Positions 4,765 to 63,298 of a DNA stretch of 64,000 bases are shown here, in pieces (within the stretch, counting starts at the first letter, position 1; every line of letters starts with the position of its first letter). This DNA is from Candidatus Parcubacteria bacterium (GTDB lineage Bacteria; Patescibacteriota; Minisyncoccia; UBA6257; HR35), in contig AP024681.1 of the NCBI GenBank assembly GCA_025999335.1, positions 3,414-67,413 on the forward strand. The letters are read 5' to 3'. The notes below the pieces were generated by a model, which was not told the origin of the DNA, did not search any database, and saw only the letters and a program-made list of their open reading frames with translations. Both the position numbers and the translations under genes were made by a program.

Positions 4765-6237
4765 ATGAATATTTATGAGGATGTTTTAAGAAGGTTAAGG
4801 GAAACAAGGCGGATTTTTAAGGGTAAGGAGAAAAAGTTTGATGAACTTTTTGAGGTTTTAAAGGAGCCACAAAGAATTATTAAAGTTAATTTGCCGCTAA
4901 GAAGAGATGATGGAAAGTTAAAGATTTATGAAGGTTACCGAGTTCAGCATAATAATTTTTTAGGTCCTTATAAAGGTGGAATAAGATATTATCCTGAAGT
5001 TGATGAAGATGAAGTTAAAACTTTGGCTTTACTTATGAGTTTGAAATGTGCTTTGGTTGGTTTGCCTTTGGGTGGAGGAAAGGGTGGAATTAAGGTTGAT
5101 CCGAAAAAATTGTCTGAAAAAGAGTTGGAGAGACTTTCAAGGGAGTATGTAAGAAAAGTTTATGATTTTATTGAACCAGAAAAAGATGTGCCGGCTCCTG
5201 ATGTTAATACGAATGCTAAAATTATGGATTGGATGGTTGATGAGTATCTTGAATTAGCGAAAAAAGATAAACAGAGAAGAGATTTAAAAATTAATTATTT
5301 GAAGGCAGCATTTACAGGAAAGTCAGTTGAAAATGGAGGATCAAAAGGAAGGGAAGAGGCAACTGGAAGAGGTGGAGTTGTTATTTTAGAAGAGATTGTT
5401 AAAAAGTTAAAAATTAAAAAACCTTTGAGAGTTGCTGTTCAGGGATTTGGAAATGTTGGTTATCATTTTGCTAAAGTTTTGTATGAAAGTAATAAAGAAT
5501 TGTTTAAAATTGTTGCTTTGTCAGATAGTAAAGGAGGAATTTATTCTGAAGAAGGTTTTAATCCGGAGTTAGTGATGGAGTGTAAAAGGGAAAGGGGATT
5601 AATTGCTGGTTGTTATTGTGTTGGAAGTGTTTGTGATATTCGCGGCTCGGCTCGCTCGATGCGTCAGTTTGTTGTGTCTAAAGTTTCCCTCGACTCGCCC
5701 CCCGAAGCCACACAGCCCTCGGCTTGGCATTCGCCAATCGCCTCCGCCGGAACAAGTCTCGGGAAACGCCATAGAAATCTACCTAAATCTAAACCGCGAA
5801 TATTTTACGGGGATATTACTAATGAACAATTGCTTGAGTTTGATGTGGATGTTTTGGTATTAGCGGCAATTGAGGATGTTATTCATAAAGGCAATGCTAA
5901 AAAAGTTAAAGCAAAAATTATTATTGAGATGGCAAATAGACCAATTACTAGTGAAGCTGATGAAATTTTAAATAAGAAGGGTGTTTTGATTGTTCCGGAT
6001 ATTTTGGCAAATTCTGGTGGAGTTATTGTTTCTTATTTTGAGATGGTGCAGAACATAAAAAATCAGGTTTGGCCTGAAAAGAAAGTTTTTGATAATTTGA
6101 AAAAACATTTAATTGAAGCTTTTAATGAAGTTTGGCGAATGAAAAATAAATTTAAAAACCTTGATTTAAGAACACTTGCTTATGGAGTAGCAATAAAAAG
6201 AATTTTGAGTAAATTTGATATAATTAAATTAAGATGA
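4765..6237 (+). CDS. gdhA: Glutamate dehydrogenase (Glu/Leu/Phe/Val dehydrogenase family) carrying a 56-codon in-frame insertion
   Basis: KGGIRYYPEV...LPLGGGKGG active-site region, GFGNVG NAD(P) Rossmann motif, C-terminal PDILANSGGVIVSYFE. 490 aa versus ~420-450 typical because of the GC-rich insert at 5636-5803. Confidence 0.85.
   Translation: MNIYEDVLRRLRETRRIFKGKEKKFDELFEVLKEPQRIIKVNLPLRRDDGKLKIYEGYRVQHNNFLGPYKGGIRYYPEVDEDEVKTLALLMSLKCALVGLPLGGGKGGIKVDPKKLSEKELERLSREYVRKVYDFIEPEKDVPAPDVNTNAKIMDWMVDEYLELAKKDKQRRDLKINYLKAAFTGKSVENGGSKGREEATGRGGVVILEEIVKKLKIKKPLRVAVQGFGNVGYHFAKVLYESNKELFKIVALSDSKGGIYSEEGFNPELVMECKRERGLIAGCYCVGSVCDIRGSARSMRQFVVSKVSLDSPPEATQPSAWHSPIASAGTSLGKRHRNLPKSKPRIFYGDITNEQLLEFDVDVLVLAAIEDVIHKGNAKKVKAKIIIEMANRPITSEADEILNKKGVLIVPDILANSGGVIVSYFEMVQNIKNQVWPEKKVFDNLKKHLIEAFNEVWRMKNKFKNLDLRTLAYGVAIKRILSKFDIIKLR
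5636..5803. repeat. 168-nt GC-enriched palindromic element inserted in frame in gdh; perfect 10-bp terminal inverted repeats ATATTCGCGG / CCGCGAATAT
   Basis: Local GC content far above flanking gene. 168 nt = 56 codons. Encodes CVGSVCDIRGSARSMRQFVVSKVSLDSPPEATQPSAWHSPIASAGTSLGKRHRNLPKSKPRIF between GDH segments that are contiguous in other GDHs. Confidence 0.65.
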
Positions 6238-8657: not shown

Positions 8658-11027
8658 ATGAAATATATAAAATTTTTTCAAGAATTATCAAAAGATGATG
8701 TTGGTTTAGTTGGTGGTAAAAATGCTAATTTAGGAGAAATGTATCAGAAATTGATTGGTTTAGGAGTAAGAGTTCCGAGTGGATTTGCGGTGACTGCTGA
8801 AGGTTACGATTATTTTATTCAATTTAATAATTTAGAAAATAAGATAAAAGAAATTCTACAAAATACTAATATTTATGATGTCTCTCAACTTCAAAAAGCA
8901 GGAGAAGAAATAAGAAATTTAATTAAACAGGGCGAGTTTCCAGAAGATTTGAAGAATGAAATTCTAAGTGCTTTTGAAGAGTTGAAAAAAGAATATAGCG
9001 AAAATTTACAAGTAGCCGTAAGAAGTAGCGCTACAGCTGAAGACCTGCCTGATGCTTCATTCGCGGGGCAGCAAGAAACATATTTAAATGTGACTGAAAA
9101 AGATTTATTAGAAAAAGTTAAGTTCTGTTTTGCTTCTTTGTTTACTGATCGAGCAATTTTTTATAGACAAGAAAAAGGATTTGATCATTTTAAAGTAAAA
9201 CTTTCTGTTGGTATTCAAAAAATGGTAAGATCTGACCTAGCAAGTTCGGGAGTGATGTTTACTATTGACGCTGATTCTGGTTTAGATAAAGTAATTGTTG
9301 TTAATGGAGTTTGGGGATTGGGAGAGCTTATTGTTCAAGGAAAAGTTATTCCGGATGAGTGGATTGTTTTTAAAGTTGGTTTAGAAAGAGGCTGTCGAAG
9401 TATTATTAGCAAAAGATTAGGTGAAAAAGTTAAAAAAATTGTTTATGGAGAAAATGGAGGAGTAGCAGAAGTTGAAACCGAACAAAAAGAAAAGGAAATT
9501 TTTTCTTTAAGCGATGATGAAGTGTTAGAACTGGCAAAAATGGGCTATATTATTGAAAAGCATTATAAAAGAGCAATGGATATTGAATGGGCAAAAGATG
9601 GCGTTGATGGTAAGCTTTATATTGTTCAAGCAAGACCAGAAACTGTCCATTCGGCTAAAAAGAAAAATGTTTGGGTTGAGTATAAATTAAAAGCGAGAGG
9701 AGAGATTTTAACAAAAGGTATAGCAATTGGTTCAAAAATTAGTTCAGGAAAAGTTAGAGTGATTAAAGATGTTTCAAAAATAAATGAATTTCAAGAAGGA
9801 GAAATTTTAGTTACAGAAATGACCGATCCAGACTGGGTGCCAATTATGAAAATTGCTAAAGGAATAATTACTGATAAAGGAGGAAGAACTTGCCATGCGG
9901 CTATAGTATCACGAGAACTTGGAATTCCTGCAATTGTTGGCACAGGAAATGCAACAGAAATTTTAAAAACCGGAGATGAAGTGACAATTGATTGCAGTGC
10001 TGGAATTACTGGTTATATTTATAAAGGAATTTTAGATTATGAAGTTATTGAACATAATTTAGAAGAGATTCCTGAAACTAAAATAAAAATTTATGTTAAT
10101 ATTGGACTTCCTGATGAAGCTTGGGAAAGATGGTATTTACCAGTTAAAGGTGTAGGACTTGCTCGTGAAGAATTTATTATTGCTGAAGAAATAAAAATTC
10201 ATCCTAATGCATTGATTGATTATCCAAATTTACCAGAGGACATTAAACAAAAAATAGATGAACTCGTAAAAGATTATGAAGATAAAAAACAATATTTTGT
10301 TGATAAATTAGCTGAAGGGATTGCTAAAATTTGTACTGCTTATTATCCTTATGAAGTAATAGTTAGATTTTCTGATTTTAAGACAAATGAATATGCAAAT
10401 TTAATCGGCGGTGAACTTTATGAGCCTAAAGAAGATAATCCGATGATTGGTTGGCGAGGAGCAAGCAGATATTATCATTCAAAATTTCAAGAAGCTTTTA
10501 AATTAGAAGTTTTAGCAATGAAAAAAGTAAGAGAAGAGATGGGGTTAGATAATTTAGTAATGATGGTGCCGTTTTGTCGAACTCCTGAAGAAGGAAGAAA
10601 AGTTATGGAAATTATTGAAAGTATAATGGGTAAAAGAGAGGAAAAAGGATATAAAGTTTATGTTATGGCAGAAATCCCTTCAAATATTTTGCAAGCCGAA
10701 GAATTTTTAGAGATTTTTGATGGAATGTCAATTGGTTCAAATGATTTAACACAACTCACTTTAGGAATTGATCGTGATAATGAAATTTTACAAGGATTAG
10801 CTGATGAAAGAAATGAATCAGTGAAAAAATTAATTTCTCAAGTAATTAAAATTTGTAAAGAAAAAAATAAATACATTGGTATTTGTGGTCAAGCTCCAAG
10901 TGATTTTCCAGAAATAGTTGAACTTTTAGTTAAAAAAGGAATTGAAAGTATAAGTGTTAATAGTGATGTGGTGATTAAAACAATTGAATTGGTTAAAAAG
11001 TTTGAGGATGAAAATAGAAAATATTAA
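8658..11027 (+). CDS. ppsA: Phosphoenolpyruvate synthase (pyruvate, water dikinase)
   Basis: N-terminal DVGLVGGKNANLGEM, SSATAEDLPDASFAGQQETYLNV, phospho-His domain GGRTCHAAIVSRELGIPAIVG, C-terminal PEP-utilising TIM-barrel. Confidence 0.85.
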   Translation: MKYIKFFQELSKDDVGLVGGKNANLGEMYQKLIGLGVRVPSGFAVTAEGYDYFIQFNNLENKIKEILQNTNIYDVSQLQKAGEEIRNLIKQGEFPEDLKNEILSAFEELKKEYSENLQVAVRSSATAEDLPDASFAGQQETYLNVTEKDLLEKVKFCFASLFTDRAIFYRQEKGFDHFKVKLSVGIQKMVRSDLASSGVMFTIDADSGLDKVIVVNGVWGLGELIVQGKVIPDEWIVFKVGLERGCRSIISKRLGEKVKKIVYGENGGVAEVETEQKEKEIFSLSDDEVLELAKMGYIIEKHYKRAMDIEWAKDGVDGKLYIVQARPETVHSAKKKNVWVEYKLKARGEILTKGIAIGSKISSGKVRVIKDVSKINEFQEGEILVTEMTDPDWVPIMKIAKGIITDKGGRTCHAAIVSRELGIPAIVGTGNATEILKTGDEVTIDCSAGITGYIYKGILDYEVIEHNLEEIPETKIKIYVNIGLPDEAWERWYLPVKGVGLAREEFIIAEEIKIHPNALIDYPNLPEDIKQKIDELVKDYEDKKQYFVDKLAEGIAKICTAYYPYEVIVRFSDFKTNEYANLIGGELYEPKEDNPMIGWRGASRYYHSKFQEAFKLEVLAMKKVREEMGLDNLVMMVPFCRTPEEGRKVMEIIESIMGKREEKGYKVYVMAEIPSNILQAEEFLEIFDGMSIGSNDLTQLTLGIDRDNEILQGLADERNESVKKLISQVIKICKEKNKYIGICGQAPSDFPEIVELLVKKGIESISVNSDVVIKTIELVKKFEDENRKY

Positions 11028-12195
11028 AGCGAATAAAATTCTTGATTCAAGAGGGGAGTGGACAGTTGAGGTTGAAATTGAAAGTGAAAACAAAGGAAAA
11101 GCTTCAATTCCTTCAGGAAAAAGTTTGGGATCTCATGAGGCAGTTTGTTTAGATTGTGATTTAATTGAAAAGAATTTACCAGAATTTTTAAAAGAAGTTA
11201 AGAATTTTGATTTTAAGTCTTCTCAAGAATTTGATAATTTTTTAATTGAAAGAGCAGGAAAGAATAAAGAAAAATTAGGAGGGAATTTTACTTTAGGATG
11301 TTCAATTGCATTTGCAAAAGTATTAGCTAAAAAAGAAGGATTAGAACTTTATGAATATTTGGAGAAAGAATATACGCAGACAACCGCAAACTATACGCAG
11401 GCAGCCGCAGAGAGTTATAATAATAGTCCGCGGGAGTTTGCGTTAAGTCTGCAGGAATCCGCGCCTACTCCAAAATTAATTATCAATATTATTGGTGGTG
11501 GGGTTCATTCTTTTAATAATTTAGATTTTCAGGAGTGTTGGCTAGTAAGCAAACAAAGTTTTTCCGAAAAATTGATTGCTGAAATTTTAAGCGTAATTAA
11601 TATTTTAGAAAATAAACTCTCAAAACCATTAGGAAGAAATGATGAGGGAGCGTTTTGTACAAATTTTAATGACAATTATGAACCTTTTATTTATTTAAAT
11701 CAATTTAAAGAAAATTTTGAGCTTGGCGCGGATATTGCTGCTAATCAAATTAAAAAAGACATAAATTGGCAAGAAATTTATCATCAATTAAAAAAATTAA
11801 ATGTTACTTATTTAGAAGATCCTTACAAAGAAGATGAATTTGAATATTTTGCGAACTTAAGAAAAGAAGGATTTAAAGTTATCGGGGACGATTTAACAAC
11901 AACTAATACAGAAAGATTAAAAACTGCTTTAGAAAAAAATTCTCTTGATGGAGTAATTGTTAAACCAAATCAAATTGGAACAATTAAAGAAACTTTTGAT
12001 TTTATAAAACTAGCAAAAGAAAATAATTTATTTACAATTTTTTCTCATCGCAGCGGAGAAACTAATGATAATTGGATTATTGATTTAGGAATTTCTTTCA
12101 ATGCTGATTATTTTAAAATTGGCGTGCCATTACAAGGCGAAAGAATTGCTAAATGGAACAGATTAAAAGAAATTTTTGATAAAAATGATAAGTAA
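11008..12195 (+). CDS. eno: Enolase (divergent), with a ~30-codon in-frame insert
   Basis: MKIENIKANKILDSRGEWTVEVEIE N-terminus, VKPNQIGTIKETFDFIKLA...SHRSGETNDNWIIDLGI C-terminal signature. Start chosen at the internal ATG 11008 (overlaps the ppsA stop by 20 nt) rather than the longer ORF start 10984. Confidence 0.8.
   Translation: MKIENIKANKILDSRGEWTVEVEIESENKGKASIPSGKSLGSHEAVCLDCDLIEKNLPEFLKEVKNFDFKSSQEFDNFLIERAGKNKEKLGGNFTLGCSIAFAKVLAKKEGLELYEYLEKEYTQTTANYTQAAAESYNNSPREFALSLQESAPTPKLIINIIGGGVHSFNNLDFQECWLVSKQSFSEKLIAEILSVINILENKLSKPLGRNDEGAFCTNFNDNYEPFIYLNQFKENFELGADIAANQIKKDINWQEIYHQLKKLNVTYLEDPYKEDEFEYFANLRKEGFKVIGDDLTTTNTERLKTALEKNSLDGVIVKPNQIGTIKETFDFIKLAKENNLFTIFSHRSGETNDNWIIDLGISFNADYFKIGVPLQGERIAKWNRLKEIFDKNDK
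11374..11463. repeat. ~90-nt GC-enriched element inserted in frame in eno; divergent member of the GCGAAC-type family
   Basis: Encodes TQTTANYTQAAAESYNNSPREFALSLQESA between the enolase LYEYL and PTPKLIINIIGGG segments. Shares the ANY..NN.REF peptide core and TATAATAG..CGCG nucleotide core with the pcm and rpe inserts. Internal ccgcgg palindrome and gcagac/gtctgc inverted repeat. Confidence 0.5.
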
Positions 12196-28382: not shown

Positions 28383-30110
28383 ATGATAAACATAATAAAA
28401 TCAAACAAATTTACTTTCTCTTCTCTTTCTTTTGTAATTTTATTAATTATTTTCTTTATTCCCTCAACAAGCAATTCTCAACAATCTCAATATCAAGGTA
28501 AAATAGGTTCTTATCCTATTGTTATTGAAGCTTTTAATCTTTTAGATGATAATCAAACCATAAAAGGAAGATATAGGTATCAGAATAAAGATGTGTGGTT
28601 AATCTTAAAAGGAAAGATTGACTTAAAAAATAATTCTGTGTCTATAGATGAATACGATGAAAATAATGTTAAGACTGGAATATTTACGGGAGAATATGAT
28701 AAGAAATCAAACTCTATAAAACTAACAAGTTGGTCTAATCCTAAGAAAAAAACATCATTAAAAGTATATTTACCTTCTATAAATCTTATAAAAATTAGCA
28801 AACAAGAAAAAATATCAGGAGTAACAAATTTTCTTAAAACTGAAAAAATTTATACTATACCTAATGGTTATAAGTTAGTTGAGATAAAAATTTTAACAAG
28901 TTCAAAAAGATATGCATTATTATTAAAAACTCCAGAAGGAAAATATACAGTTGTCTTAGACGGCAAAGAAAGTAAGAAGTATGATGGTTTATATGGTTTC
29001 ACTTTCTCTCCTGATGGTCAACATTTTGCTTATATTGTCGGAGAAGATTGTATGTATTATAATGAATGCTCAAAATATTTTGTAGTCTTAGATGAAAAAG
29101 AAGGGAAAAAATATGATTATATTGATAAAAATAACCTCACTTTCTCTCCCAATGGTCAACATTTTGCTTATATCGCTAGAAAAGAAGGCAAAAGTTTTGT
29201 AATTTTAGACGGAAAAAGAAAAAAAAGTTATGATGATATTAATAACTTAACTTTCTCTCCTGATGGTCAACATTTTGCTTATATAGCTAGGGAAAAAGGT
29301 AAATATGCTGTGGTTTTAAACGGAAAAGAAAGCGAAAAATATGATATTGCTTATAATCTTATTTTCTCTCCTGATGGTCAACATTTTGCTTATGTCGCTA
29401 GAAAAGAAGGCAAAAGTTTTGTAATTTTAGACGGAAAAAGAAAAAAAAGTTATGATGATATTAATAACTTAACTTTCTCTCCTGATAGTCAACATTTTGC
29501 TTATGTCGCTGGAATCGGCAAAGATTGTGTATATATCCTTAACCTTTATGAATATCAATGTTTAAAATATTTTGTAGTTCTAGATGGTAAAGAAGGTGAA
29601 AAATATGATGGTATTTATAATTTTATCTTTTCCCCCAATGGTCAACATATTGCTTATATAGCTGGAGAAAATTGCAACATATATCTTAGACCTGAATACT
29701 GTTCTAAATATTTTATTGTCTTAGATAACAAAAAAAGCAGCAAAAAATATGAGTATGGTGACATAGATGAATCTAGTCTCAAATTTTCTCCTAACAGTCA
29801 ACATTTCGCTTATATAGCTAGAGAAAAACGTAAATATGCTGTGGTTTTAAACGGAAAAGAAAACGAAAAATATGATAGTGCTTATAATCTTATTTTCTCT
29901 CCTGATAGTCAACATTTTGCTTATATAGCTGGAAAAGATTGTATGTATTATAATGATAATGAATGTTCAAAATATTTTATAGTTTTAGATAACAAAGAAA
30001 GTGAGGAATATGATAAAATATATCAGTTTAATTTTCTTGAAAATAATAAAAACTTAATTTACTTTGTTTTAAAGAATAATGAGATTTGGAGAATTGTTGA
30101 AGAGTTGTGA
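28383..30110 (+). CDS. Secreted PD40-like (TolB C-terminal type) beta-propeller repeat protein, paralog 1
   Basis: Signal peptide; ~13 tandem ~40-aa repeats of the form KYD..Y...FSPDGQHFAYIA..GK..VVLDGKE. Confidence 0.6.
   Translation: MINIIKSNKFTFSSLSFVILLIIFFIPSTSNSQQSQYQGKIGSYPIVIEAFNLLDDNQTIKGRYRYQNKDVWLILKGKIDLKNNSVSIDEYDENNVKTGIFTGEYDKKSNSIKLTSWSNPKKKTSLKVYLPSINLIKISKQEKISGVTNFLKTEKIYTIPNGYKLVEIKILTSSKRYALLLKTPEGKYTVVLDGKESKKYDGLYGFTFSPDGQHFAYIVGEDCMYYNECSKYFVVLDEKEGKKYDYIDKNNLTFSPNGQHFAYIARKEGKSFVILDGKRKKSYDDINNLTFSPDGQHFAYIAREKGKYAVVLNGKESEKYDIAYNLIFSPDGQHFAYVARKEGKSFVILDGKRKKSYDDINNLTFSPDSQHFAYVAGIGKDCVYILNLYEYQCLKYFVVLDGKEGEKYDGIYNFIFSPNGQHIAYIAGENCNIYLRPEYCSKYFIVLDNKKSSKKYEYGDIDESSLKFSPNSQHFAYIAREKRKYAVVLNGKENEKYDSAYNLIFSPDSQHFAYIAGKDCMYYNDNECSKYFIVLDNKESEEYDKIYQFNFLENNKNLIYFVLKNNEIWRIVEEL
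28486..29050. repeat. ~565-bp near-identical direct repeat (copy 1) shared with 30233-30797: 5' modules of the two PD40 paralogs
   Basis: Nucleotide strings identical over long stretches when the two gene starts are compared by eye; the same 73-aa antisense ORFs appear at 28580..28801 and 30337..30558. Confidence 0.8.
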
Positions 30111-30142
30111 TTTTTTTCATATATTTTTTATAATAATAAAAA

Positions 30143-32426
30143 ATGACATCAAGAAATTATACTCTTAGCTTGTTTACTCTCCTTCTTGTTATTATTGTTT
30201 CTATTTTCTTTTCTTTTCCGCAAAATACTTACTCTCAACAATCTCAATATCAAGGTAAAATAGGTTCTTATCCTATTGTTATTGAAGCTTTTAATCTTTT
30301 AGATGATAATCAAACCATAGAAGGAAGATATAGGTATCAGAATAAAGATGTGTGGTTAATCTTAAAAGGAAAGATTGACTTAAAAAATAATTCTGTGTCT
30401 ATAGATGAATACGATGAAAATAATGTTAAGACTGGAATATTTACGGGAGAATATGATAAGAAATCAAACTCTATAAAACTAACAAGTTGGTCTAATCCTA
30501 AGAAAAAAACATCATTAAAAGTATATTTACCTTCTATAAATCTTATAAAAATTAGCAAACAAGAAAAAATATCAGGAGTAACAAATTTTCTTAAAACTGA
30601 AAAAATTTATACTATACCTAATGGTTATAATTTAGTTGAGATAAAAATTTTAACAAGTTCAAAAAGATATGCATTATTATTAAAAACTCCAGAAGGAAAA
30701 TATACAGTTGTCTTAGACGGCAAAGAAAGTAAGAAGTATGATGGTTTATATGGTTTCACTTTCTCTCCTGATGGTCAACATTTTGCTTATATTGTCGGAG
30801 AAAATTGTAAAAAACAATATTCATATGATGAATGCTCAAAATATTTTGTAGTTTTAGATGAAAAAGAAGGGGAAAAATATGATGGTATTTATAATTTTAT
30901 CTTTTCCCCTAACAGTCAACATTTTGCTTATTTAGCTAAAGAAGATTGTAAAAAACAATATTCATATGATGAATGCTCAAAATATTTTGTAGTTTTAGAT
31001 AATAAAGAGGGAGAAAAATATAATTCTATTAGTAACCTCACTTTCTCTCCCAATAGTCAACATTTTATTTATAGCGCCATAAAAGAAGGAAAAAAAATTG
31101 TAATTCTCGATGGTAAAGAAGGAGAAAAATATGATTTTATTATTGACCCTATTTTTTCTCCTAATGGAGAACATCTCGCTTATATAGCCGGAAAAGATGA
31201 AAAATATTTTATTGTACTCGATGGAAAAGAAGGTAAAAAGTATGAATACGTTTCTAACTTTGGTTTCTCTCCTAATAGCCAACATCTTTTTTATATAGTT
31301 GGAGAACATTGTTTTATGAATCGTAAAGATTGCCCAGTTTCTTTTGTGGTCTTAGACAAAAAAGAAGGTAAGAAGTATGATAATATCTATAATATTATTT
31401 TCTCTCCTGATAGTCAACATTTTGCTTATATAGCTAGTAAAAAAGGAAAAGAAACTGTGGTTCTCGATGGGAAAGAAGGCAAAAAGTATGACGAAGTTCA
31501 CTTTTATACTTTCACTTTCTCTTCTAACAATCAAAATTTTGTTTATAGAGCTAAAAAAGAAGAAAAATACATTGTGGTTTTTAATGAAAAAGAAGGCAAG
31601 GAATATGAACAAGTTTATGATTTAATTTTATCTCCAGATTATAAACATTTTGCTTATATAGCCGGAGAAGATTGCAAAGAAACAGATCAATGTTCAAAAT
31701 ATTTCGTAGTGTTAGACGGAAAAGAAGAAAAAAGATATAATTATGTTTATAATTTAATTTTATCTCCAGATTATAAACATTTTGCTTATGCTATCAAGGA
31801 AAAAGAAGGATATTTCGTTATCTTAGATGGGGAAAAAAAGTAATAAGTATGATTATGTCTATAAGCTCACTTTCTCTCCTGATAGTCAACATTTTGCTTA
31901 TATAGCTAAAAAAGAAGGCAAAGATATTGTAGTTTTAGATGGTAAAGAAAGTAAAAAATATGACAATGTTTATGATTTTATATTTTCTCCTGATGGTCAA
32001 CATTTTGCTTATATAGCTAGTAAAGAAGGGAAAAATGTTGTAGTTTTAGATGGGGAAGAAGGAGAGCAATATGATAGTATTTATGATTTTGCATTCTCTC
32101 CTGATAGTAGACGTTTTATTTATAGAGCTCAGAAAGAAGAAAAAGAAATTGTAGTTATAAATAAAAAAGAAGGCAAAAAATATGATTATATTAACGAAGG
32201 TAGCTTCACTTTCTCTCCTGATGGTCAACATTTTGCTTATATAGCTGGAAAAGATTGTATATATTATAATGATAATGAATGTTCAAAATATTTTATAGTT
32301 TTAGATAACAAAGAAAGTGAGGAATATGATAAAATATATCAGTTTAATTTTCTTGAAAATAATAAAATCTTAATTTACTTTGCTTTAAAGAATAATGAGA
32401 TTTGGAGAATTGTTGAAGAGTTGTGA
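30143..32426 (+). pseudogene. Secreted PD40-like beta-propeller repeat protein, paralog 2, split by a frameshift at an A7 tract (31833-31839) into ORFs 30143..31843 and 31827..32426
   Basis: Signal peptide and N-terminal ~220 aa nearly identical to paralog 1; last ~60 aa nearly identical to the paralog 1 C-terminus (DC.YYNDNECSKYFIVLDNKESEEYDKIYQFNFLENNK.LIYF.LKNNEIWRIVEEL); removing one A from the A7 run restores the repeat unit ...VILDGEKKSNKYDYVYKLTFSPD. Confidence 0.55.
30233..30797. repeat. ~565-bp near-identical direct repeat (copy 2)
   Basis: See copy 1; a second shorter repeat pair (~170 bp) joins 29930-30110 with 32250-32430. Confidence 0.8.
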
Positions 32427-32513
32427 TTTTTTTATATATTTTTGTATAATATTATATTAATATTAAAATTTATTATTAGTTTTAAAAATTAATTAATATA
32501 AACATATAAAAAA

Positions 32514-37573: not shown

Positions 37574-37608
37574 TTAAGTTCGCAAAAGAATTATTTTGCG
37601 AACTTAAA
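37574..37608. terminator. near-perfect 35-nt palindrome ttaagttcgcaaaagaat|tattttgcgaacttaa (likely terminator/operator)
   Basis: 17/18 positions self-complementary; sits 80 nt after the preceding + strand gene and ~190 nt before murC; contains the GTTCGC/GCGAAC motif. Confidence 0.4.
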
Positions 37609-55133: not shown

Positions 55134-55853
55134 TTAATCGCCTACCAAAGGCACAAAACTAAACCCAAAATAAAATTCTTTATTTATTTTATCACCTGAT
55201 TTTTTAATTTTATATATGCCATTATCAGCAGGAATAACTAAAACACCATTATCGTTAAGTTGATCAAGCAATGATTGGGGAATCTTTTTAGCTGCAGCGC
55301 TAATTAAAATTCTATCAAAAGGCGCTTTTTCTGGTAATCCTTTAGAACCATCGCCTAAAAAAATCTCAACTATGCCCTTCTTTAAAAAATTATATTTTTC
55401 GATATTCCTTTTGCCGAACTCAAAAACTTCAGGAGCTATTTCAATTGCATAGACTTTTCCAGACGCGAACTCTTGCGAACCATCTCGCGAACTTGTGCGA
55501 ACTTTATCATCTTCTATTCGTGTAGGTTCGCGATTGCTATTATAGTTCGTATTTGTTCGTGTTATCTCCGCCAACAAACAAGTAGTCCAACCCGAACCAA
55601 AACCAACATCTAAAATTTTTTGTTCTTGTTTCGGCTCTAAAAGTTCCAACATAAAAGCAACCGTGTAAGGCTGGGAAATGGTTTGTTCCCTTCCAATTGG
55701 CAAAGGATAATCATTATAAGCCTCATTTAAAAATTCTTGAGGCACAAAATCTTTACGGTCAATTCTTAAGAAAGCTTTAATAATTTCCGGAGTTTTTAAT
55801 ACTTTTCTTTCTTTTAAAGATTCAACTAATTCTTTATTACTTTGATAAAACAT
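55134..55853 (-). CDS. pcm: Protein-L-isoaspartate O-methyltransferase, with 33-34-codon in-frame insert
   Basis: ISQPYTVAFMLELL, SAM-binding ILDVGFGSGWTTCLLAEI ... GKVYAIEI, C-terminal FDRILISAAA...IPAD. Confidence 0.8.
   Translation of the reverse strand: MFYQSNKELVESLKERKVLKTPEIIKAFLRIDRKDFVPQEFLNEAYNDYPLPIGREQTISQPYTVAFMLELLEPKQEQKILDVGFGSGWTTCLLAEITRTNTNYNSNREPTRIEDDKVRTSSRDGSQEFASGKVYAIEIAPEVFEFGKRNIEKYNFLKKGIVEIFLGDGSKGLPEKAPFDRILISAAAKKIPQSLLDQLNDNGVLVIPADNGIYKIKKSGDKINKEFYFGFSFVPLVGD
55463..55561. repeat. ~99-nt GCGAAC-rich palindromic element inserted in frame in pcm
   Basis: + strand cgcgaactcttgcgaaccatctcgcgaacttgtgcgaac...ggttcgcg...gttcgtatttgttcgtgt; gene-sense termini ACACGAAC...GTTCGCGT (imperfect inverted repeat); encodes TRTNTNYNSNREPTRIEDDKVRTSSRDGSQEFAS absent from Pcm orthologs. 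Confidence 0.65.
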
Positions 55854-56107: not shown

Positions 56108-56884
56108 TTATTTATAATTTTTTATAATTTCTATAAAACCTAAATAAGTTTTGAAGGGATCTTCTGTATTGTAAATAGCGCTTGCCATAATAATAAAATC
56201 AGGTTCATAAGTTAAAATTTGTCTTAAATTTTGCTGATTTATACCACCATCAATCATCAATTTTTGATTTTTTTTAAGTTTTTTTTTAATAAAAGCAAGA
56301 CGATTATAAGTATCTTCTAAAAAACTCTGGCCGGCTCTTCCTGGATTAACTCCTAAAATTAATACGCCATTAACAAAATCTAAATATTTTTTAATAAAGT
56401 CAAAAGTAATTTTAGGTGACCAACCTATAAATATCTCTTTTTTTGTTTTTTTAGCTAATTTTAAAAGACCATCGGGATTAGAACTTGCCTCTAAATGCAA
56501 AATTAATCTTTTAACATTTTCTTTCGCCCACTTTAGAATTTCTTGAGGTTTTAAAGGAATCATTAGATGAATGTCAAATACTATGCGCGAACTACTACGA
56601 ACACTATTATTAATCGCGAACTTATGCGAACTCCCATCCGAACCATTGCCAACATCATTATCATCTGTTGGCATCAGTTCGCGGTTATTACCATAATTCG
56701 CATCAATTCGTGTCAATTCTAATCTATCCAAATCATTATAATTCCTCCAGGTTTCATAACCAGTAAAACTTTTTTCGGCTACATCTAAATGAAAATTTTG
56801 GGTTGAATCTTTCAAAATATTAACTTTCTCCTTAATTTCTTCAAAACTCTGAGCATTAATTGCCGGAATAATTTTTGTTTTCAT
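56108..56884 (-). CDS. rpe: Ribulose-phosphate 3-epimerase-like (divergent), with ~43-codon in-frame insert
   Basis: DIHLMIPLKP, ILGVNPGRAGQSF, MIDGGIN motifs of the ribulose-phosphate-binding barrel; adjacent to rpiB. Confidence 0.6.
   Translation of the reverse strand: MKTKIIPAINAQSFEEIKEKVNILKDSTQNFHLDVAEKSFTGYETWRNYNDLDRLELTRIDANYGNNRELMPTDDNDVGNGSDGSSHKFAINNSVRSSSRIVFDIHLMIPLKPQEILKWAKENVKRLILHLEASSNPDGLLKLAKKTKKEIFIGWSPKITFDFIKKYLDFVNGVLILGVNPGRAGQSFLEDTYNRLAFIKKKLKKNQKLMIDGGINQQNLRQILTYEPDFIIMASAIYNTEDPFKTYLGFIEIIKNYK
56586..56713. repeat. ~128-nt GCGAAC-rich palindromic element inserted in frame in rpe; homologous to the pcm insert
   Basis: Gene-sense ACACGAATTGATGCGAATTATGGTAATAACCGCGAAC...GTTCGCGC aligns at ~70% identity with the pcm element; encodes TRIDANYGNNRELMPTDDNDVGNGSDGSSHKFAINNSVRSSSR (compare TRTNTNYNSNREPT...SRDGSQEFA). 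Confidence 0.65.
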
Positions 56885-57697: not shown

Positions 57698-59474
57698 TAA
57701 ATTTATTTTTAAGCTTTAGTTTTATTTTAACATAAAAATTTTTAAATATAATTACAATCAAAATAATTATAATGACTAACTTCCAATCAAGAGCATATAA
57801 AAACCAATAATATGACTTTAATTCAATATTTATGTGAATACCTTCGCCTTCCCGTGCTTCAATAATATTACTTTTATAAGGATAATACCCATCAGCTTCA
57901 ACTGTTAAATAATATTTACCTTCAGGAACTAAAAATGAATAATTACCTGATTGATCAGTAAATTGAGGATTGGTTTGCAAAAATTTTTTAGCATCCCATA
58001 TTTCAAAACTTTGTTTCTGATAATTAAAAGAATATAAAGTAACTTTAGCGTTAGCAATACGCGCTTCCCTGCCGAAAATTCTTTCAAAAACATAACCTTC
58101 AGGGTCAATAACTGTAATCAAGCGTAATTCTTTAACTCCCAAATCTATTGTTTTGTATTCAACAACTGTTATAATCTCAAATTTCCCGTAAATTTTTGAA
58201 GGCAACTGGACTTTTGCTGTGTAAATACCATCATTATCGTCATCAAAATATTGAAATTCATAAACTTTAAAACCATACTCCACATTTTTAGCAAAAATAA
58301 CATTAATAAAACGTTGCCACCAAGACGTCGCTGAACCTCGATACAATAAATAACCTTTCAAACTTTTTACTTCAGATGACGGTTTGTAAACTAATAAAAG
58401 CTCTTGCTTATTTAAAACATTAATTGCCGGTAAAATTTCATTATTTTCATCTACTATTAAAAACGGCTTTATATCAAACATATCTTTATGAGTTTTAACA
58501 AAAACCAGATCTGAAGGAATTTTATCTTTATAGTCTAGAGAAAGTTTAGCAAGAGGTAAATTAACATTAAGAACTTCCCTTAAAGTCGGAATATGAATTT
58601 TGGCAATTTTTAATTTTTCTAAATTTAACAAATTATATAATCCTACATTCTGAAAAATCTTATTCACTTGCGGTAATTTTAAAGCTAATAATCTTATATT
58701 TTCCGGTAAATATATTTTTGTAAAATCAACCATTGGCTGATTATAAATAGTATAAGTAAGCTTTAAAGGTATAAATCTTATTACATTCCAACGTAAATCT
58801 ATGCTTGTTTTTAAGGCTTCTATTTCTTGTTCTCTAAAATAAGGAATTGATCTTTTAATTTTTTTAGTTATTTGTCTAGTAACCTCTTGAACTCGTTTAG
58901 TTTGTTGGCTAACAAAATTGTTTAAGTTAGCAAACAAATCTTCTATATTTTTCTTTAAAATTTCAAGAGTTGAAGAATTAATGTAAAGCACCGCCGAAGA
59001 GTTAAAATTATAATCACGACTATAAGAACCCATCACTCTGCTACCTTCAGATGTTGCCGTTGCTTTACGCCACAAAGTTTTAACTTTACAATCGGAGCAA
59101 TCAAAATTAATTTTACTATCATCTCTAACAACGATAGCATAACCTGAAAATTCTCCAGTAAAAGGATTAATTTTAACATTAGAAAAATCAATCCAACCAA
59201 TATTTTCACCCCACGCATAACCAGCTAAATTACCATCGCCATCATTAGTAACTCCAGCTGTTAAAGGCGATAAATTAATCCATCCATAGTTCATACTCCA
59301 AGCATAACCTGTTAATTTATTATCAAAAACTTGAACATTGCCATAAGTAGGCGCAAAATTAACCCATCCTAATGTTTCGCCCCAAGCATATTTATAATTT
59401 GTATCAATGCTAGCAGCAATTATAAAAAAAGCTGGTGTTATAAAAAATAGAATGATAAGAATCTTTTTTGCCAT
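57690..59474 (-). CDS. Secreted/surface protein with N-terminal Trp-rich tandem repeats, CarboxypepD_reg-like beta-sandwich and C-terminal TM anchor
   Basis: Signal peptide; repeats AWGETLGWVNFAP / GYAWSMNYGWINLSP / GYAWGENIGWIDFSN; ...GKYYLTVEADGYYPYKSNIIEA...; hydrophobic C-terminus. Confidence 0.45.
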   Translation of the reverse strand: MAKKILIILFFITPAFFIIAASIDTNYKYAWGETLGWVNFAPTYGNVQVFDNKLTGYAWSMNYGWINLSPLTAGVTNDGDGNLAGYAWGENIGWIDFSNVKINPFTGEFSGYAIVVRDDSKINFDCSDCKVKTLWRKATATSEGSRVMGSYSRDYNFNSSAVLYINSSTLEILKKNIEDLFANLNNFVSQQTKRVQEVTRQITKKIKRSIPYFREQEIEALKTSIDLRWNVIRFIPLKLTYTIYNQPMVDFTKIYLPENIRLLALKLPQVNKIFQNVGLYNLLNLEKLKIAKIHIPTLREVLNVNLPLAKLSLDYKDKIPSDLVFVKTHKDMFDIKPFLIVDENNEILPAINVLNKQELLLVYKPSSEVKSLKGYLLYRGSATSWWQRFINVIFAKNVEYGFKVYEFQYFDDDNDGIYTAKVQLPSKIYGKFEIITVVEYKTIDLGVKELRLITVIDPEGYVFERIFGREARIANAKVTLYSFNYQKQSFEIWDAKKFLQTNPQFTDQSGNYSFLVPEGKYYLTVEADGYYPYKSNIIEAREGEGIHINIELKSYYWFLYALDWKLVIIIILIVIIFKNFYVKIKLKLKNKFNE

Positions 59475-62400
59475 TATTCATTAGTCGTTATCGCTGGTTG
59501 ATTCTCTGATTGATTATTATTAATAGAACTATTAGATTCAGCATTAGAACTATTAGACGAATTATTACTAGAATTATCTTGAAAAGTATTATTGTTTATG
59601 TTAGAACTCTCTGAAGATTGATTATTAAGATTGCTTGAAGCACTATTATTGCTTGCCGGTAGGTTATTTGTTTCTTGATCAGAATTAACAGAAGATTCAG
59701 ATGTTACTGATGAAGACGAGGAAGACGAGGATGAAGAAGAGGATGGCGATGAAGAAGAGGTTGAAGTATTAGAAGTTGACGAAGACGAAGATGTTGTTGT
59801 TGATGATGGCAAATCTGATGTTGAAGAGCTGCTTGTTTGTTGAGTTTGATTATTATTAGAATTACTCACATTTCCATTATTATTACCAGAATTCCCAGAA
59901 TTATAATTATTATTGCTACTATTAAAATTATTAAGAGTTGACATATCTGAAGCATTAGAACAATTACCTTTAATCTTTTTAAGCTCGCCAGCAGCTATGT
60001 ATACGCAATAAGATTCACCAGTAATCTGATCTTTCATTTCTAAAAATTCTGTTTTTATTTTTGGTGAGATTATATAACTTGCCGATAATTGCTGAACTAT
60101 TATTTCTTTTACTGTCAATAAATTCTTTTCAATTGTTAAACCTAATGATCGTAAAGCATCAACAACATAGTATTGAATGTTTAAGAAGAAATCTTTCACT
60201 AATTGATAAAGATAAATAGGTAAACTTTCATACTTAATTCCTTCTGGGGTCCCATCTTTAAATCTTACCAATTCTGGAAATTGAGTTGCTACTTCTTCAG
60301 CAATAAACCCAACTTGTTTACCCGGCAAATTAAATGGTAAATCATTTTTAAATTCAAACTCTTTAGGAGTTAATGATAAAAATTTATCTTTATCAAAAAG
60401 TAAAGCTTGAATATTCGTTTTATAACGTAAAGATGAGGGCGTGCAAATAATTTTTCCTGAAGCATCTGCTGATAAAGAACAGTTAACGGCGTTTGTTTGT
60501 AAAATATCTCCTTGAACTGTTAACTTTGCCAAAGGCGTCGTTGTTCCAATAGCAACAGAATTTTCTGTCATTCTCATTATTTCTTCGCCTCGTTGATTTT
60601 TCAAAATTAAAGCTTGTGGCGAAATTGATGTTTCAGTTTCCACAAATCTAAATTCATTAGCAAAAACTAAGTCACCAACAGTTGTTGTTCCTGCGTAAAG
60701 ATTTGCCCATCTTCTTCCAGACGCTCCTAAACTATAAAGATTATCAGCTTCCGGTAAAATACTCCAAGCAGTTGTTGTTCCTGACACATGTAATTTTGTC
60801 GCCGGCGTCGTTGTTCCGATAGCAACAGAACTCGTTGTTATTCTCATTATTTCATTTGTATTGCTCTTAAAAATAATACTACCTTGTTTTGAAGCTGTGC
60901 TTGTACTACTCGTCCCTGCTGTTATAATAACACTACCAGCTTGATCACCACCACTATTGCCAGCAGTAATATTAATATTACCAACAGCACTTGAAAAACC
61001 GGTATCAGATGTCCTAATGGTAACGCTACCAATAGATACGGAAGAACCTGTAGCAGCTATTATAATATTTCCAGAAGTAAGACCTGGACCAGAACTAATA
61101 AGCACATCTCCTCCCTTTGAAAAGTTCGTACCACCCATACCACCAAGAATGTTAACTGAACCTCCTTTGGCTATGGTTGTAGTACTTCTGTCAACATTAC
61201 CTCCTCTAATATTAATATCACCACCTCTAGCACTACCTGAAGAAGTTGCTCCTAAAATAGTTAAATCTGCTCCTGCGGTATTAGAAGTATAAGAAGGAAG
61301 AATATTAATAGTTACATTTTTTTGAGGGCTAAAGAAAAGGTTACTATCTAAACTACTAAGCGTTACTGTAGCAAAAGTAGAAGTATTTAAAACAGTAAGA
61401 TTACCAGTTATTAAAGCATTACCTTGAACAGCAAAATTTACAATCGGACTCGTTGTTCCGATACCGACGTTGCCGCTTGAAACAGCTGAACCTGTAGCAG
61501 TATTAATTCCAGTTGCAAAAATAAGATTACCGATATTTAAGAAATTAGAAGTTGTTGTTGCCGGAGTGCCTGCTTGATAACCTATTAAGATATTTCGAGA
61601 ACCAACAGTTGGAGCAAAAACTGAATCATAGCCTGACTGATAACCAATAATAATATTTCCTGTGCCTGTGGTTAATTGATAGCCTGAAAAAGCTCCGAGT
61701 AAAGTATTATAACGATCAGCGGAGGTGTCTAAATTAAAACCAGATTGATAACCTACAGCAACGCCATAATTCATTCCTTTTGCTTGATAACCTACAGCAG
61801 CGCCACTACCAAATCCTTGAGCGCCATACCCCACTCCAACGCCATAACCAAAGCCCCATGAATCATATCCTATAGCAACACCAGAAACAATGGCTGAAGC
61901 ATTATATCCTACAGCAACACCGGAAATATAACCTTGAGCATTATATCCAATAGCAGTACCTGAACTATAACCTGCGGCACTATATCCTACAGCAACACCG
62001 GAATTGTAACCTCGAGCATTATATCCAATAGCAGTACCTGAACTATACCCCAAAGAACTATAGCCTATAGCTACCCCTGAAGACGCTGAATTAGCCCCAA
62101 TACCAACGCTTACCCCATAATCAGTGCTATAACTATTTGCGCCAATAGCTAGACCATAATTATATGAGCGAACTAAAAGCGAATTCAAAATATCTACAAA
62201 ATCAAAACTTCCCCAACCTGTATTAAGATAAACAATTTTAGCACCTTTAAAAGTTGTAAGTTTATTTATTATAGATGTAGCCCCAACTTGTTTAATAATT
62301 ATTTCACTGCTACTTGTAGGTGCTGAAACATTATAAATAACAAATGAATCGCCTTGACGAGCTGTTGCTGTTGCTAAATATACAGTTACCGATGAAGTAG

Positions 62401-63298
62401 CAACATTAAAATACTGATACATCTTATCAACCCCTGGAGTTAAAGTAATATTAGATGTTAAAGTTGCAAAATTAACATCCACGCTTAAACTATTTTTTAA
62501 ATATAAATCTCTAAAAATAACAGATGAAGAAGTATTGATATCTTGAGGTAAAGATAAAATGATATTATTACTTGAAGTATTAACATTAATCTGGTTAGCG
62601 CTGCCTAACAAATTAATTGTGCCGGTTAAATTATTTAAAGATAAAACTCCCGAATTTTCGATAACAGGCGTAGCAGTGCCAAAAATATTAATACCACTGC
62701 CGGGTATTAGTAAAGAAGACAAGTTCTTGTATTCTAAACCCGTAGCTCCAGAATTGACTGTTAATAATTGATTAGCATTACCTAAAGAACTTAAACCAGT
62801 ACCACCTGATAAAATTGATAAAGGACTATCTAAAGTTAAAAAAGAAATAGAAGTCGTTGCTAAAATTGAATTGCCATTAACTTGAAAATTAACTGCCGAA
62901 CTTGTTACACCAACACCTAATTTATCTAAAAAAAACTTACTACCTGCAAAAAATTGAGTACTTGTTGAAACTAAACCTCTGCTAGTTAAAGAAGCATCTG
63001 GTAAATAAAATATATGCTGAGAACCTGTTGAAATAATTTGAAAATCATTGCCTGTAGAAGTTACATTAAAAGATTGGGTTGAAGTGATTAAATTATTTAA
63101 AGAAACAATCGGCGGCGTAACTGTGCAATTGGTTGTTGTTGGCGCACATAAAGGATCTAATGTTTCCCCAGGCAAATAAGGACTTACAGGCGGAGCAGCA
63201 TTAACATTTAAAGCAATTAAAAAATTTAAAAATAATAGAAAAAACAATAAAAAAAGCTTACAAAAATTAATTTGTGTTAATAATTTCATTTCTAACAA
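59474..63298 (-). CDS. Giant (1274 aa) surface protein: signal peptide, long beta-rich region with Gly/Tyr-rich octad repeats, tail-fibre-type intramolecular chaperone (peptidase S74-like) domain, Ser/Asn-rich low-complexity tail
   Basis: Repeats ...GVAIGYSSLGYSSGTAIGYNARGYNSGVAVGYSAAGY...; chaperone-domain hallmark PSSLRYKTNIQAL...GFIAEEVATQFPELV...GIKYESLPIYLYQLVKD; ~230-aa S/N/T-rich C-terminus. Confidence 0.55.
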   Translation of the reverse strand: MLEMKLLTQINFCKLFLLFFLLFLNFLIALNVNAAPPVSPYLPGETLDPLCAPTTTNCTVTPPIVSLNNLITSTQSFNVTSTGNDFQIISTGSQHIFYLPDASLTSRGLVSTSTQFFAGSKFFLDKLGVGVTSSAVNFQVNGNSILATTSISFLTLDSPLSILSGGTGLSSLGNANQLLTVNSGATGLEYKNLSSLLIPGSGINIFGTATPVIENSGVLSLNNLTGTINLLGSANQINVNTSSNNIILSLPQDINTSSSVIFRDLYLKNSLSVDVNFATLTSNITLTPGVDKMYQYFNVATSSVTVYLATATARQGDSFVIYNVSAPTSSSEIIIKQVGATSIINKLTTFKGAKIVYLNTGWGSFDFVDILNSLLVRSYNYGLAIGANSYSTDYGVSVGIGANSASSGVAIGYSSLGYSSGTAIGYNARGYNSGVAVGYSAAGYSSGTAIGYNAQGYISGVAVGYNASAIVSGVAIGYDSWGFGYGVGVGYGAQGFGSGAAVGYQAKGMNYGVAVGYQSGFNLDTSADRYNTLLGAFSGYQLTTGTGNIIIGYQSGYDSVFAPTVGSRNILIGYQAGTPATTTSNFLNIGNLIFATGINTATGSAVSSGNVGIGTTSPIVNFAVQGNALITGNLTVLNTSTFATVTLSSLDSNLFFSPQKNVTINILPSYTSNTAGADLTILGATSSGSARGGDINIRGGNVDRSTTTIAKGGSVNILGGMGGTNFSKGGDVLISSGPGLTSGNIIIAATGSSVSIGSVTIRTSDTGFSSAVGNINITAGNSGGDQAGSVIITAGTSSTSTASKQGSIIFKSNTNEIMRITTSSVAIGTTTPATKLHVSGTTTAWSILPEADNLYSLGASGRRWANLYAGTTTVGDLVFANEFRFVETETSISPQALILKNQRGEEIMRMTENSVAIGTTTPLAKLTVQGDILQTNAVNCSLSADASGKIICTPSSLRYKTNIQALLFDKDKFLSLTPKEFEFKNDLPFNLPGKQVGFIAEEVATQFPELVRFKDGTPEGIKYESLPIYLYQLVKDFFLNIQYYVVDALRSLGLTIEKNLLTVKEIIVQQLSASYIISPKIKTEFLEMKDQITGESYCVYIAAGELKKIKGNCSNASDMSTLNNFNSSNNNYNSGNSGNNNGNVSNSNNNQTQQTSSSSTSDLPSSTTTSSSSSTSNTSTSSSSPSSSSSSSSSSSSVTSESSVNSDQETNNLPASNNSASSNLNNQSSESSNINNNTFQDNSSNNSSNSSNAESNSSINNNQSENQPAITTNE

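Follow-up and report, generated by a model that had tools for sequence, protein, structure and literature searches.

A heptamer-array hairpin inserted in frame in the enolase gene of a hot-spring Parcubacteria bacterium, and its probable relationship to GxxExxY nuclease-associated elements

Introduction

Several described systems resemble in part the element reported here, a GC-rich palindromic insert in the enolase gene of Candidatus Parcubacteria KatS3mg097, a tiny hot-spring bacterium. The gene lies in a 64-kb stretch of contig AP024681.1, which was analyzed as a whole and is hereafter called the window (GC content 27.5%). The closest parallel is offered by the Rickettsia palindromic elements (RPE), reportedly described by Ogata et al. 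in 2000. The features that the enolase insert and its relatives appear to share with RPE are those of palindromic repeats of about 100-150 nt that lie in frame in housekeeping genes of a small AT-rich genome, in many copies, are translated as extra surface peptides, are also found in intergenic regions and lack a transposase of their own. With inteins they would share a selfish nuclease gene placed in frame in essential genes and expressed through host transcription and translation, together with the coexistence, among relatives, of empty sites and of mini forms devoid of an open reading frame (ORF), as in a homing cycle. GC-rich, stem-forming mobile inserts of AT-rich genomes, some of them with a small ORF in the loop, are also represented by the intervening sequences of rRNA genes, which are excised, and by the GC clusters and 'byps' of yeast mitochondria, the latter being skipped by ribosomes. 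The ends of Tn7, Mu, Ac/Ds and En/Spm likewise carry several short motifs each, which are protein-binding, inverted and helically phased. Finally, bacterial MITEs (transposable elements of the miniature inverted-repeat type), short non-autonomous elements that form hairpins and sometimes add in-frame peptides, are known from coding regions, e.g. the Coxiella QMITEs (PMC5896051; reviewed in PMC10969869). RPE are mentioned in the same review and in PMC1779305.

The segment analyzed here is a copy of a dispersed in-frame repeat and not native enolase sequence. We consider it probable that this copy, which resides in a permissive interdomain linker, is translated and tolerated and represents an in-frame, nuclease-associated selfish element in miniature form, without the ORF. 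The nuclease belongs to the GxxExxY family (PF13366/TIGR04256) of PD-(D/E)XK enzymes, and PF13366 is listed as 'function unknown' (PMC3424549). In the literature on GxxExxY, PF13366 and in-frame palindromic elements in Patescibacteria or the Candidate Phyla Radiation (CPR) we did not find this arrangement described, although our coverage was incomplete and a prior description is possible. A further-reaching proposal is put forward tentatively, as one about which we are slightly doubtful: the enolase hairpin would be what remains of a kind of selfish element that is apparently undescribed, in which a PF13366 nuclease gene with helically phased, inverted arrays on both sides enters housekeeping genes in frame, at permissive loops, is expressed within the host protein as a domain insertion, like an 'intein without splicing', and decays to translated hairpins that remodel linkers. 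Loci and proteins from other genomes are designated by L and P numbers.

Results

An in-frame insert between the two enolase domains

The enolase gene (11008..12195, plus strand, with its ATG at 11008), recognized from the ORF list and Pfam, encodes a protein of 395 aa that is 100% identical to NCBI protein P0001 and has intact catalytic motifs (SHRSGETND, GDDLTTTN and KPNQIGT). Comparison with an empty site, GC content, protein alignment and low model confidence delimit an in-frame insert of 96 nt at 11371..11466 on the plus strand. It is flanked by ...LELYEYLEKEY and PKLIINIIGGG and encodes the peptide YTQTTANYTQAAAESYNNSPREFALSLQESAP; one predicted tryptic peptide that crosses it is EYTQTTANYTQAAAESYNNSPR. 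The insert is located exactly between the Enolase_N (residues 3-118) and Enolase_C (residues 158-389) domains of Pfam. In the AlphaFold model (predicted template modelling score, pTM, 0.85) the domains on both sides are confidently predicted, and residues 121-150, which cover the insert, have predicted local distance difference test (pLDDT) values of 48-55.

The closest ortholog, P0002 at locus L014, is 86% identical to the window enolase and lacks the insert, its linker consisting of 8 residues (QQNKELKQ) vs 31 in the window protein. The extra in-frame codons and the elevated GC content that a preliminary description of this DNA had ascribed to the segment were both confirmed, the GC content being 0.51 in the insert vs 0.27 in the remainder of the gene. 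Some neighbouring genes are common to L014 and the window: a PEP synthase gene is found a few genes upstream of enolase, and the short ORF directly downstream of enolase is also shared, being a Pfam DUF2905 protein in L014.

Anatomy of the hairpin

The insert folds as a single long imperfect hairpin composed of four heptamer cores, a loop and four complementary cores. The predicted RNA folding energy is -38.6 kcal/mol for the plus strand (z-score -4.3) and -48.7 kcal/mol for the minus strand (z -6.6), and none of 200 shuffles was as low in either case. The outermost pair joins 11375 with 11463, and the stem counts 31 pairs on the plus strand and 35 on the minus strand. The 5' arm (11375..11412, plus strand) contains the cores CGCAGAC (11375-81), CGCAAAC (11385-91), CGCAGGC (11396-402) and CGCAGAG (11406-12), spaced by 10, 11 and 10 nt, and translates as two 7-residue repeats, TQTTANY and TQAAAES. 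It is followed by an AT-rich loop of 13-14 nt in the folds (11413..11426, AGTTATAATAATAG), whose TAATAGT junction is also found in the 3' arm of the L012 element described below. The 3' arm delimited by the fold (11427..11463) encodes SPREFALSLQESA and carries the complementary cores TCCGCGG (11427-33), GTTTGCG (11436-42), GTCTGCA (11447-53) and ATCCGCG (11457-63), with a spacing of 9, 11 and 10 nt. The insert thus contains two inverted arms of at least three cores at a phasing of 10-14 nt. The cores are paired and the 3-5-nt spacers are unpaired, so that the stem is a string of short GC helices split by internal loops.

A sliding fold scan across all 64 kb placed the inserts in enolase, pcm and rpe (the latter two are treated below) and four tRNAs among the strongest outliers. 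No Rfam family matched the enolase insert, and only the four tRNAs scored above gathering thresholds in the window; the tRNA and Rfam scans account for other GC islands in the window, not for this insert. It was also observed that the antisense strand folds more stably than the sense strand in most in-frame arrays (those of window enolase and pcm, and of L005, L009, L010 and L011), A.C mismatches on the purine-rich sense strand becoming G.U pairs on the opposite one. An antisense RNA, considered on account of this stability, was set aside, purine-rich coding strands being the simpler explanation.

Relatives of the insert in other genes and genomes

Relatives of the enolase insert were identified in other genes and genomes, each with a similarity score reached by 0/1000 shuffles. 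The 5' arm is identical at 35 of 38 nt, spacers included, to part of an insert in the TruB gene of another metagenome-assembled genome (L011, z 17.6), and it matches the insert found in the enolase of L010 (z 10.7) at the position named site 1 below. Both arms are matched by an element of L012 (5' arm, z 6.3; 3' arm, z 7.6), which lies inside an NADH-dehydrogenase-like (ndh) gene of KatS3mg094. In the latter element a CGCAGAC array (TCADYTQTNADNIKTQTDANYTQADAG) is followed by a GxxExxY nuclease ORF and then by a GTCTGCG array, whose peptide is SQQESASSQKV...SLQKSASSLQKSES; the three parts share the frame of the host gene.

Association of the arrays with GxxExxY nucleases

In full-length relatives, the nuclease ORF (~375 nt, ~125 aa) occupies the loop. 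A PF13366 domain lies within the ORF of 14 aligned long enolase homologs; it occupies site 1, the same site as that of the window insert, in P0081 and P0087, and site 3 in 12 of the 14. The site-1 copy of L015 consists of a CCGGAT array, the nuclease ORF and an ATCCGG array. An ORF-less hairpin with CCGGAT/ATCCGG cores occupies site 3 of the same enolase, and a further CCGGAT hairpin array (8093-8282) is present in the neighbouring PEP synthase gene. L016 and L017, two of the twelve site-3 copies, read as DNA, have CACGAAT/ATTCGTG arms and a nuclease of a different clade. The nuclease of P0087 is associated with CCGGAT cores, those of P0085 and P0100 with CACGAAT and that of L012 with CGCAGAC.

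When a free-standing GxxExxY protein served as query in an exhaustive HMMER search, embedded nuclease domains were identified in many proteins, among them GatB (at several positions), RecO, RecG, AsnB, LepA, FolD, a hydrolase, glycosyltransferases and an O-antigen ligase; a word-index search with the nuclease domain returned free-standing proteins only. The peptides that flank the embedded domains are of the same kind as the array peptides, and the embedded nucleases retain the D...ExK catalytic motif. The nuclease model (pLDDT 95) shows a generic PD-(D/E)XK/Cas4-like fold, with Cas4 SSO0001 as the best match (TMq 0.57). Additionally, free-standing GxxExxY genes in intergenic regions are bracketed by inverted heptamer triplets (L018 and L019), and a scan of metagenomes for CGCAGAC triplets yielded 5 loci out of 120 with a GxxExxY ORF within ~100 nt of the arrays.

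The spacing of the cores was 10-12 nt in 71% of 157 intervals. Two spacing subfamilies can be distinguished, with intervals alternating between 10 and 11 nt (21 nt, 7 codons) or between 11 and 13 nt (24 nt, 8 codons), and these double units explain the heptad-like peptides. Intergenic arrays were observed in L005 (14729-14790, 15338-15385 and 11752-11851) and L012 (11745-11850); one-orientation arrays begin directly at stop codons, and complete hairpins are located just upstream of start codons.

Insertion hot-spots and empty sites in enolase

The length of 120 close enolase homologs in Patescibacteria ranges from 367 to 659 aa, and their alignment reveals three insertion hot-spots, filled with inserts of widely differing length and sequence: site 1 after EYLxxEY, which is the one used by the window insert, site 2 after QEYWLVS, and site 3 after YLKEFK. 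At these hot-spots the arrays differ in length and core among close relatives, and the length of the site-1 insert varies freely from 0 to 100 residues. When occupancy was mapped on a neighbour-joining tree built from the shared enolase alignment columns, P0001/P0002 and P0003/P0006 were found to be sister pairs with one filled and one empty site; P0004 and P0005 are 88% identical, yet have different core types at site 1. Enolase genes located by tblastn, independently of gene calling, were single intact ORFs in 13 of 13 cases.

As to site 2, one-orientation CGCGGAT arrays are present there in several enolases, among them those of L015 (10997-11150) and L016, where they encode the peptide ...TADLRGLTRIDKTRIN... 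At site 2 of L016 a CACGAAT/ATTCG hairpin directly abuts the CGCGGAT array; arrays that differ in core type are thus nested or placed side by side.

The pcm and rpe inserts of the window

Two further genes of the window, both on the minus strand, carry in-frame arrays of a GCGAAC/GTTCGC subfamily. The array in pcm (ORF 55134..55853) is located at 55460..55565. It forms a hairpin (z -6.4 on the plus strand) and splits the Pfam PCMT match into two stretches; pcm orthologs are mostly 206-210 aa long, those of this length lacking it, and they have a hot-spot of their own after LLAEI(V/T), where diverse arrays are found. The pcm protein of the window is 100% identical to KatS3mg097_057. The array in rpe (ORF 56108..56884) is located at 56585..56722; its hairpin has a z-score of about -4 on both strands, and the host frame is its sole open frame. 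Homology between the two inserts is clear (Smith-Waterman score 44 vs 15.5 +/- 2.3, reached by 0/1000 shuffles), in an alignment of ~100 nt with many mismatches and three gaps, and they match GTTCGC arrays of L011, located in its TruB and enolase genes (z 11-20).

The preliminary description had assigned the enolase, pcm and rpe inserts to one family that colonized at least three genes on both strands. Three arrays with a shared architecture are indeed present (enolase, plus strand; pcm and rpe, minus strand), and clusters of at least 5 cores number 3 in the window vs 0.18 in shuffles. The architecture common to both subfamilies is that of inverted arrays of at least 4 heptamers with a phasing of 10-12 nt. 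However, judged by their core sequences, CGCAGAC/CGCAAAC in enolase vs GCGAAC in pcm and rpe, the inserts are of different subfamilies, and the closer similarity formerly perceived could not be upheld, the enolase copy failing the alignment criterion that the preliminary description had itself set. The proposed DNA core, TATAATAGYNNNCGCG, gives 5 matches with at most 2 mismatches vs 1.9 expected, a number equalled by 6 of 100 shuffles. Smith-Waterman alignment of the enolase insert with the pcm and rpe inserts, run on either strand with 1000 shuffles, gave scores of 12-20 vs shuffle means of 13-15, and 29-819 of the shuffles reached the score. The sole exact word in common is the 10-mer TAATAATAGT, shared with rpe. 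The supposed peptide core 'ANY..NN.RE' is contiguous in the 5' arm of pcm and rpe, whereas in enolase it is split and not collinear, with ANY in the 5' arm and NNSPREF in the loop and 3' arm. The 'ANY...EFA' resemblance arises because the complementary cores GCRAAY and RTTYGC get translated. The intergenic L012 hairpin at 11745-11850 mixes CGCAGAC/CGCAAAC with GTTCGCG cores and thereby links the two subfamilies, so that a common superfamily with different subfamilies is supportable. The hairpin structure, the phased heptamers and the link to a nuclease had not been part of the preliminary description. It should be mentioned that detection by chains of exact 6-mers misses the enolase and rpe arrays, whose cores are degenerate; a degenerate core-cluster scan was therefore used.

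A perfect 14-bp hairpin, TTAAGTTCGCAAAA / TTTTGCGAACTTAA, built on a single GTTCGC/GCGAAC core pair, was also observed in the intergenic region at 37575-37607. It is located after an ORF ending at 37491, within a very AT-rich spacer that is likewise an outlier in the fold scan; a terminator and a single-core relative of the arrays in minimal form are both conceivable.

Reading frame of the intragenic arrays

We examined 27 intragenic array segments, amounting to 1097 codons. All 27 are of 3n length, and they contain 0 stop codons in the host frame vs 35-174 in the other five frames, a comparison partly biased by the choice of segments inside ORFs. The absence of host-frame stops, the intact ORFs and the retained nuclease motif argue for translation of the insert as part of enolase, as opposed to its splicing or bypass.

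Discussion

A model for the origin of the insert

Our proposal for the origin of the insert is as follows. The element would consist of a 5' heptamer array phased at about one helical turn, a loop and an inverted 3' array, the nuclease gene being carried in the loop of the full-length form. Such elements would land between genes, where the nuclease ORF is free-standing, or inside genes, where the survivors would be those that are co-oriented, of 3n length, stop-free and placed in permissive surface loops or interdomain linkers. Surviving intragenic copies would be translated within the host protein, with arms that read as linkers of hydrophilic, low-complexity sequence (TQTxANY... / ...SxEFA, SLQESA), and the nuclease, where present, would be expressed as a domain insertion without a promoter of its own. 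After fixation the nuclease ORF would be lost, leaving a hairpin such as that in the window enolase. Expansion or contraction of the arrays might follow, by double units (21 or 24 nt) that preserve the frame, as might their reduction to solo arms or their deletion, and this turnover would produce the patchy presence between sister lineages. The elements are thus presumed to be mobile, and their movement may be driven by the nuclease, possibly with the arrays as its binding or cleavage sites. As the enolase copy has no GxxExxY in its loop and the window has none either, it can only be a miniature or a relic, and loss of the ORF is its likely origin.

Several observations weigh against this model. 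tblastn detected no GxxExxY anywhere in the 64-kb window, and the exact enolase module gave 0 matches in the metagenomes of the Joint Genome Institute (JGI). The generic CGCAGAC pattern is too permissive, and many of the sequences it finds are high-GC one-orientation tandem repeats that are probably unrelated; the stop-codon comparison has the bias already mentioned. The window copies are not recent, given the divergence between the pcm and rpe inserts. Comparison of the filled enolase site with the empty one of L014 revealed no target-site duplication at the junctions, and no sharp element boundary is definable in enolase, where the original linker is unrecognizable. A simple cut-and-paste miniature does not account for solo arms or for arms with host sequence between them (L002 and L011). 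The arrays could also be old and evolve in place by slippage and concerted evolution, with a passenger-like nuclease association.

Alternative explanations

The main rival explanation takes the arrays themselves as the primary unit, either as binding sites for a host protein or as repeats that some other enzyme mobilizes, in the manner of repetitive extragenic palindromic (REP) sequences and the REP-associated tyrosine transposases (RAYT), and GxxExxY as a frequent passenger of the loop, comparable to the ORFs lodged in rRNA intervening sequences; the nuclease would then have had no part in the origin of the enolase insert. It would accommodate the many arrays without an ORF, the solo arms, the intergenic arrays right after stop codons and a window without a nuclease gene, as well as the metagenome scan, in which 115 of the 120 CGCAGAC arrays, on short contigs, have no GxxExxY nearby. 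However, all the GxxExxY genes examined as DNA (L012, L015, L016, L017, L018, L019, L032, L094, L107, L120 and L139) have arrays or single cores within ~200 nt, and most of them are bracketed on both sides, L107 and L139 having exact cores on one side only. Moreover, different nuclease clades go with different cores, and no transposase candidate was seen adjoining the arrays, so we regard this explanation as unlikely. Also to be considered is an exapted functional part of enolase, i.e. a ribosome-pausing mRNA hairpin or a selected flexible or helical linker, for which the repeat origin would be incidental. Such a role would suit the position exactly at the domain boundary, the strength of the hairpin and the clear purifying selection on the rest of enolase. 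We nevertheless judge it quite improbable, in view of the closest ortholog and many others that lack the insert, the free variation of site 1 in length (0 to 100 residues) and sequence, and the presence of the same repeats at unrelated positions of unrelated genes; the better folding of the antisense strand, here and in most relatives, speaks against selection on mRNA structure.

Removal of the insert after transcription (as an intron-like or RNase III-processed segment), or its skipping by the ribosome like a yeast mitochondrial 'byp', is brought to mind by the length of the stem and the GC-poor genome around it, a combination that recalls the intervening sequences of rRNA genes and the GC clusters of mitochondria. 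Neither removal nor bypass would impose the 3n length of 27 out of 27 segments or their freedom from stops in the host frame only, no Rfam family of this kind was matched in the window, and to our knowledge nothing religates mRNA cut by RNase III; this alternative is accordingly very unlikely. A purely local origin, in which a low-complexity linker of enolase expanded by slippage or template switching without any relation to other repeats, would be in keeping with tandem 21-24-nt double units, which are prone to slippage, and with fuzzy boundaries that lack a target-site duplication. It is contradicted by the 35/38-nt match to TruB, spacers included, and by the match of both arms to the L012 ndh element, a cross-gene similarity that cannot arise locally, and we give it hardly any credence.

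Comparison with known systems

The nuclease-associated miniature that we favour departs from each of the systems named in the Introduction. In RPE there is one long consensus, whereas the arms of the enolase-type elements are phased 6-7-nt cores with non-conserved spacers; moreover, copies differ in core type, the loop of full-length relatives holds a PD-(D/E)XK ORF, and the host is a CPR bacterium. By its architecture the insert may work like an RPE, but membership of that family is very unlikely, the host being KatS3mg097.

Unlike inteins, the elements have no Hint or splicing domain: in P0087 and 20 other host-nuclease fusions Pfam detected only PDDEXK_3 and the host domains, and the insert must therefore remain in the host protein. 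The insertion sites are variable loops and linkers rather than conserved active sites, and inteins have no counterpart to the inverted DNA repeat arrays on either side of the element. A true intein, with Intein_splicing and LAGLIDADG_3 domains in Pfam, was observed in the PEP synthase/PPDK-like gene of L014 (4385-7984, 1199 aa); the window copy of this gene (8658..11027, 789 aa) is without it.

The insert has inverted arms, as MITEs do, but each arm is repetitive in itself, and no direct repeat is visible at the junctions of the filled site. The full-length relatives encode only the nuclease, the presumed parent carrying a PD-(D/E)XK enzyme and not a transposase of the DDE or insertion sequence (IS) type. 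rRNA intervening sequences and byps, being excised or bypassed, are under no frame constraint, whereas the enolase-type arrays are strictly in frame. The difference from transposon-end arrays is that no transposase accompanies the enolase-type elements and that the motif arrays would themselves be translated.

If the proposal is correct, the streamlined genomes of the CPR tolerate translated selfish repeats inside essential enzymes, and such repeats may shape them. This would explain much of the variation in protein length in the CPR, e.g. among the enolases, as well as many odd low-complexity inserts (TQTNADY..., ...SSQEFA, ...SLQKSA) in proteins of the CPR and of other bacteria. The GxxExxY family would become a candidate mobility enzyme with its own flanking heptamer arrays as predicted targets, which would give a biological role to the large PF13366 nuclease family. 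The inserts would further serve as a natural inventory of the places at which conserved enzymes permit insertions. Caution is advisable in annotation, because the inserts lower model scores and create apparent 'fusions', as in the P0087 enolase, which scores 200 bits vs a cut-off of 300 bits.

Other repeats in the window

The glutamate dehydrogenase ORF (4765..6237, plus strand) contains a second, different in-frame insert of ~175 nt at 5640-5815, which splits the Pfam ELFV_dehydrog match and has a local GC content of up to 0.68 (80-nt window). It is flanked by a 9-bp inverted repeat, ATATTCGCG...CGCGAATAT, and has neither an Rfam match nor a heptamer periodicity. Over 115 nt it is 84% identical to L014 2557-2671, located inside a TRAM/tRNA-U5 methyltransferase gene, and both are read in the same frame (RGSARSMRQF...SPEATQ.SAWHSP.ASAGT). 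This insert looks like a member of another family of in-frame mobile inserts.

Three further repeats were observed. The region 28383..32450 includes two adjacent large ORFs on the plus strand (28383..30110 and 30143..31843) full of 111-nt (37-aa) tandem repeats, with more than 20 copies of 60-90% identity and a recurring '...VVLDGKEGKKYD...' unit. Near-identical segments are found at 28425-28724 and 30182-30481 (92%) and at 29894-30138 and 32210-32454 (95%). In the ORF 59474..63298 (minus strand, 1274 aa), the segment 61742-62081 consists of at least 8 tandem 39-nt (13-aa) repeats that are unrelated to the heptamer arrays. Finally, two neighbouring ORFs have 82%-identical 68-nt starts (766-833 and 1594-1661; MNFSIIKKSQ...), which suggests duplicated or shufflable modules of a gene of the restriction-modification specificity type.

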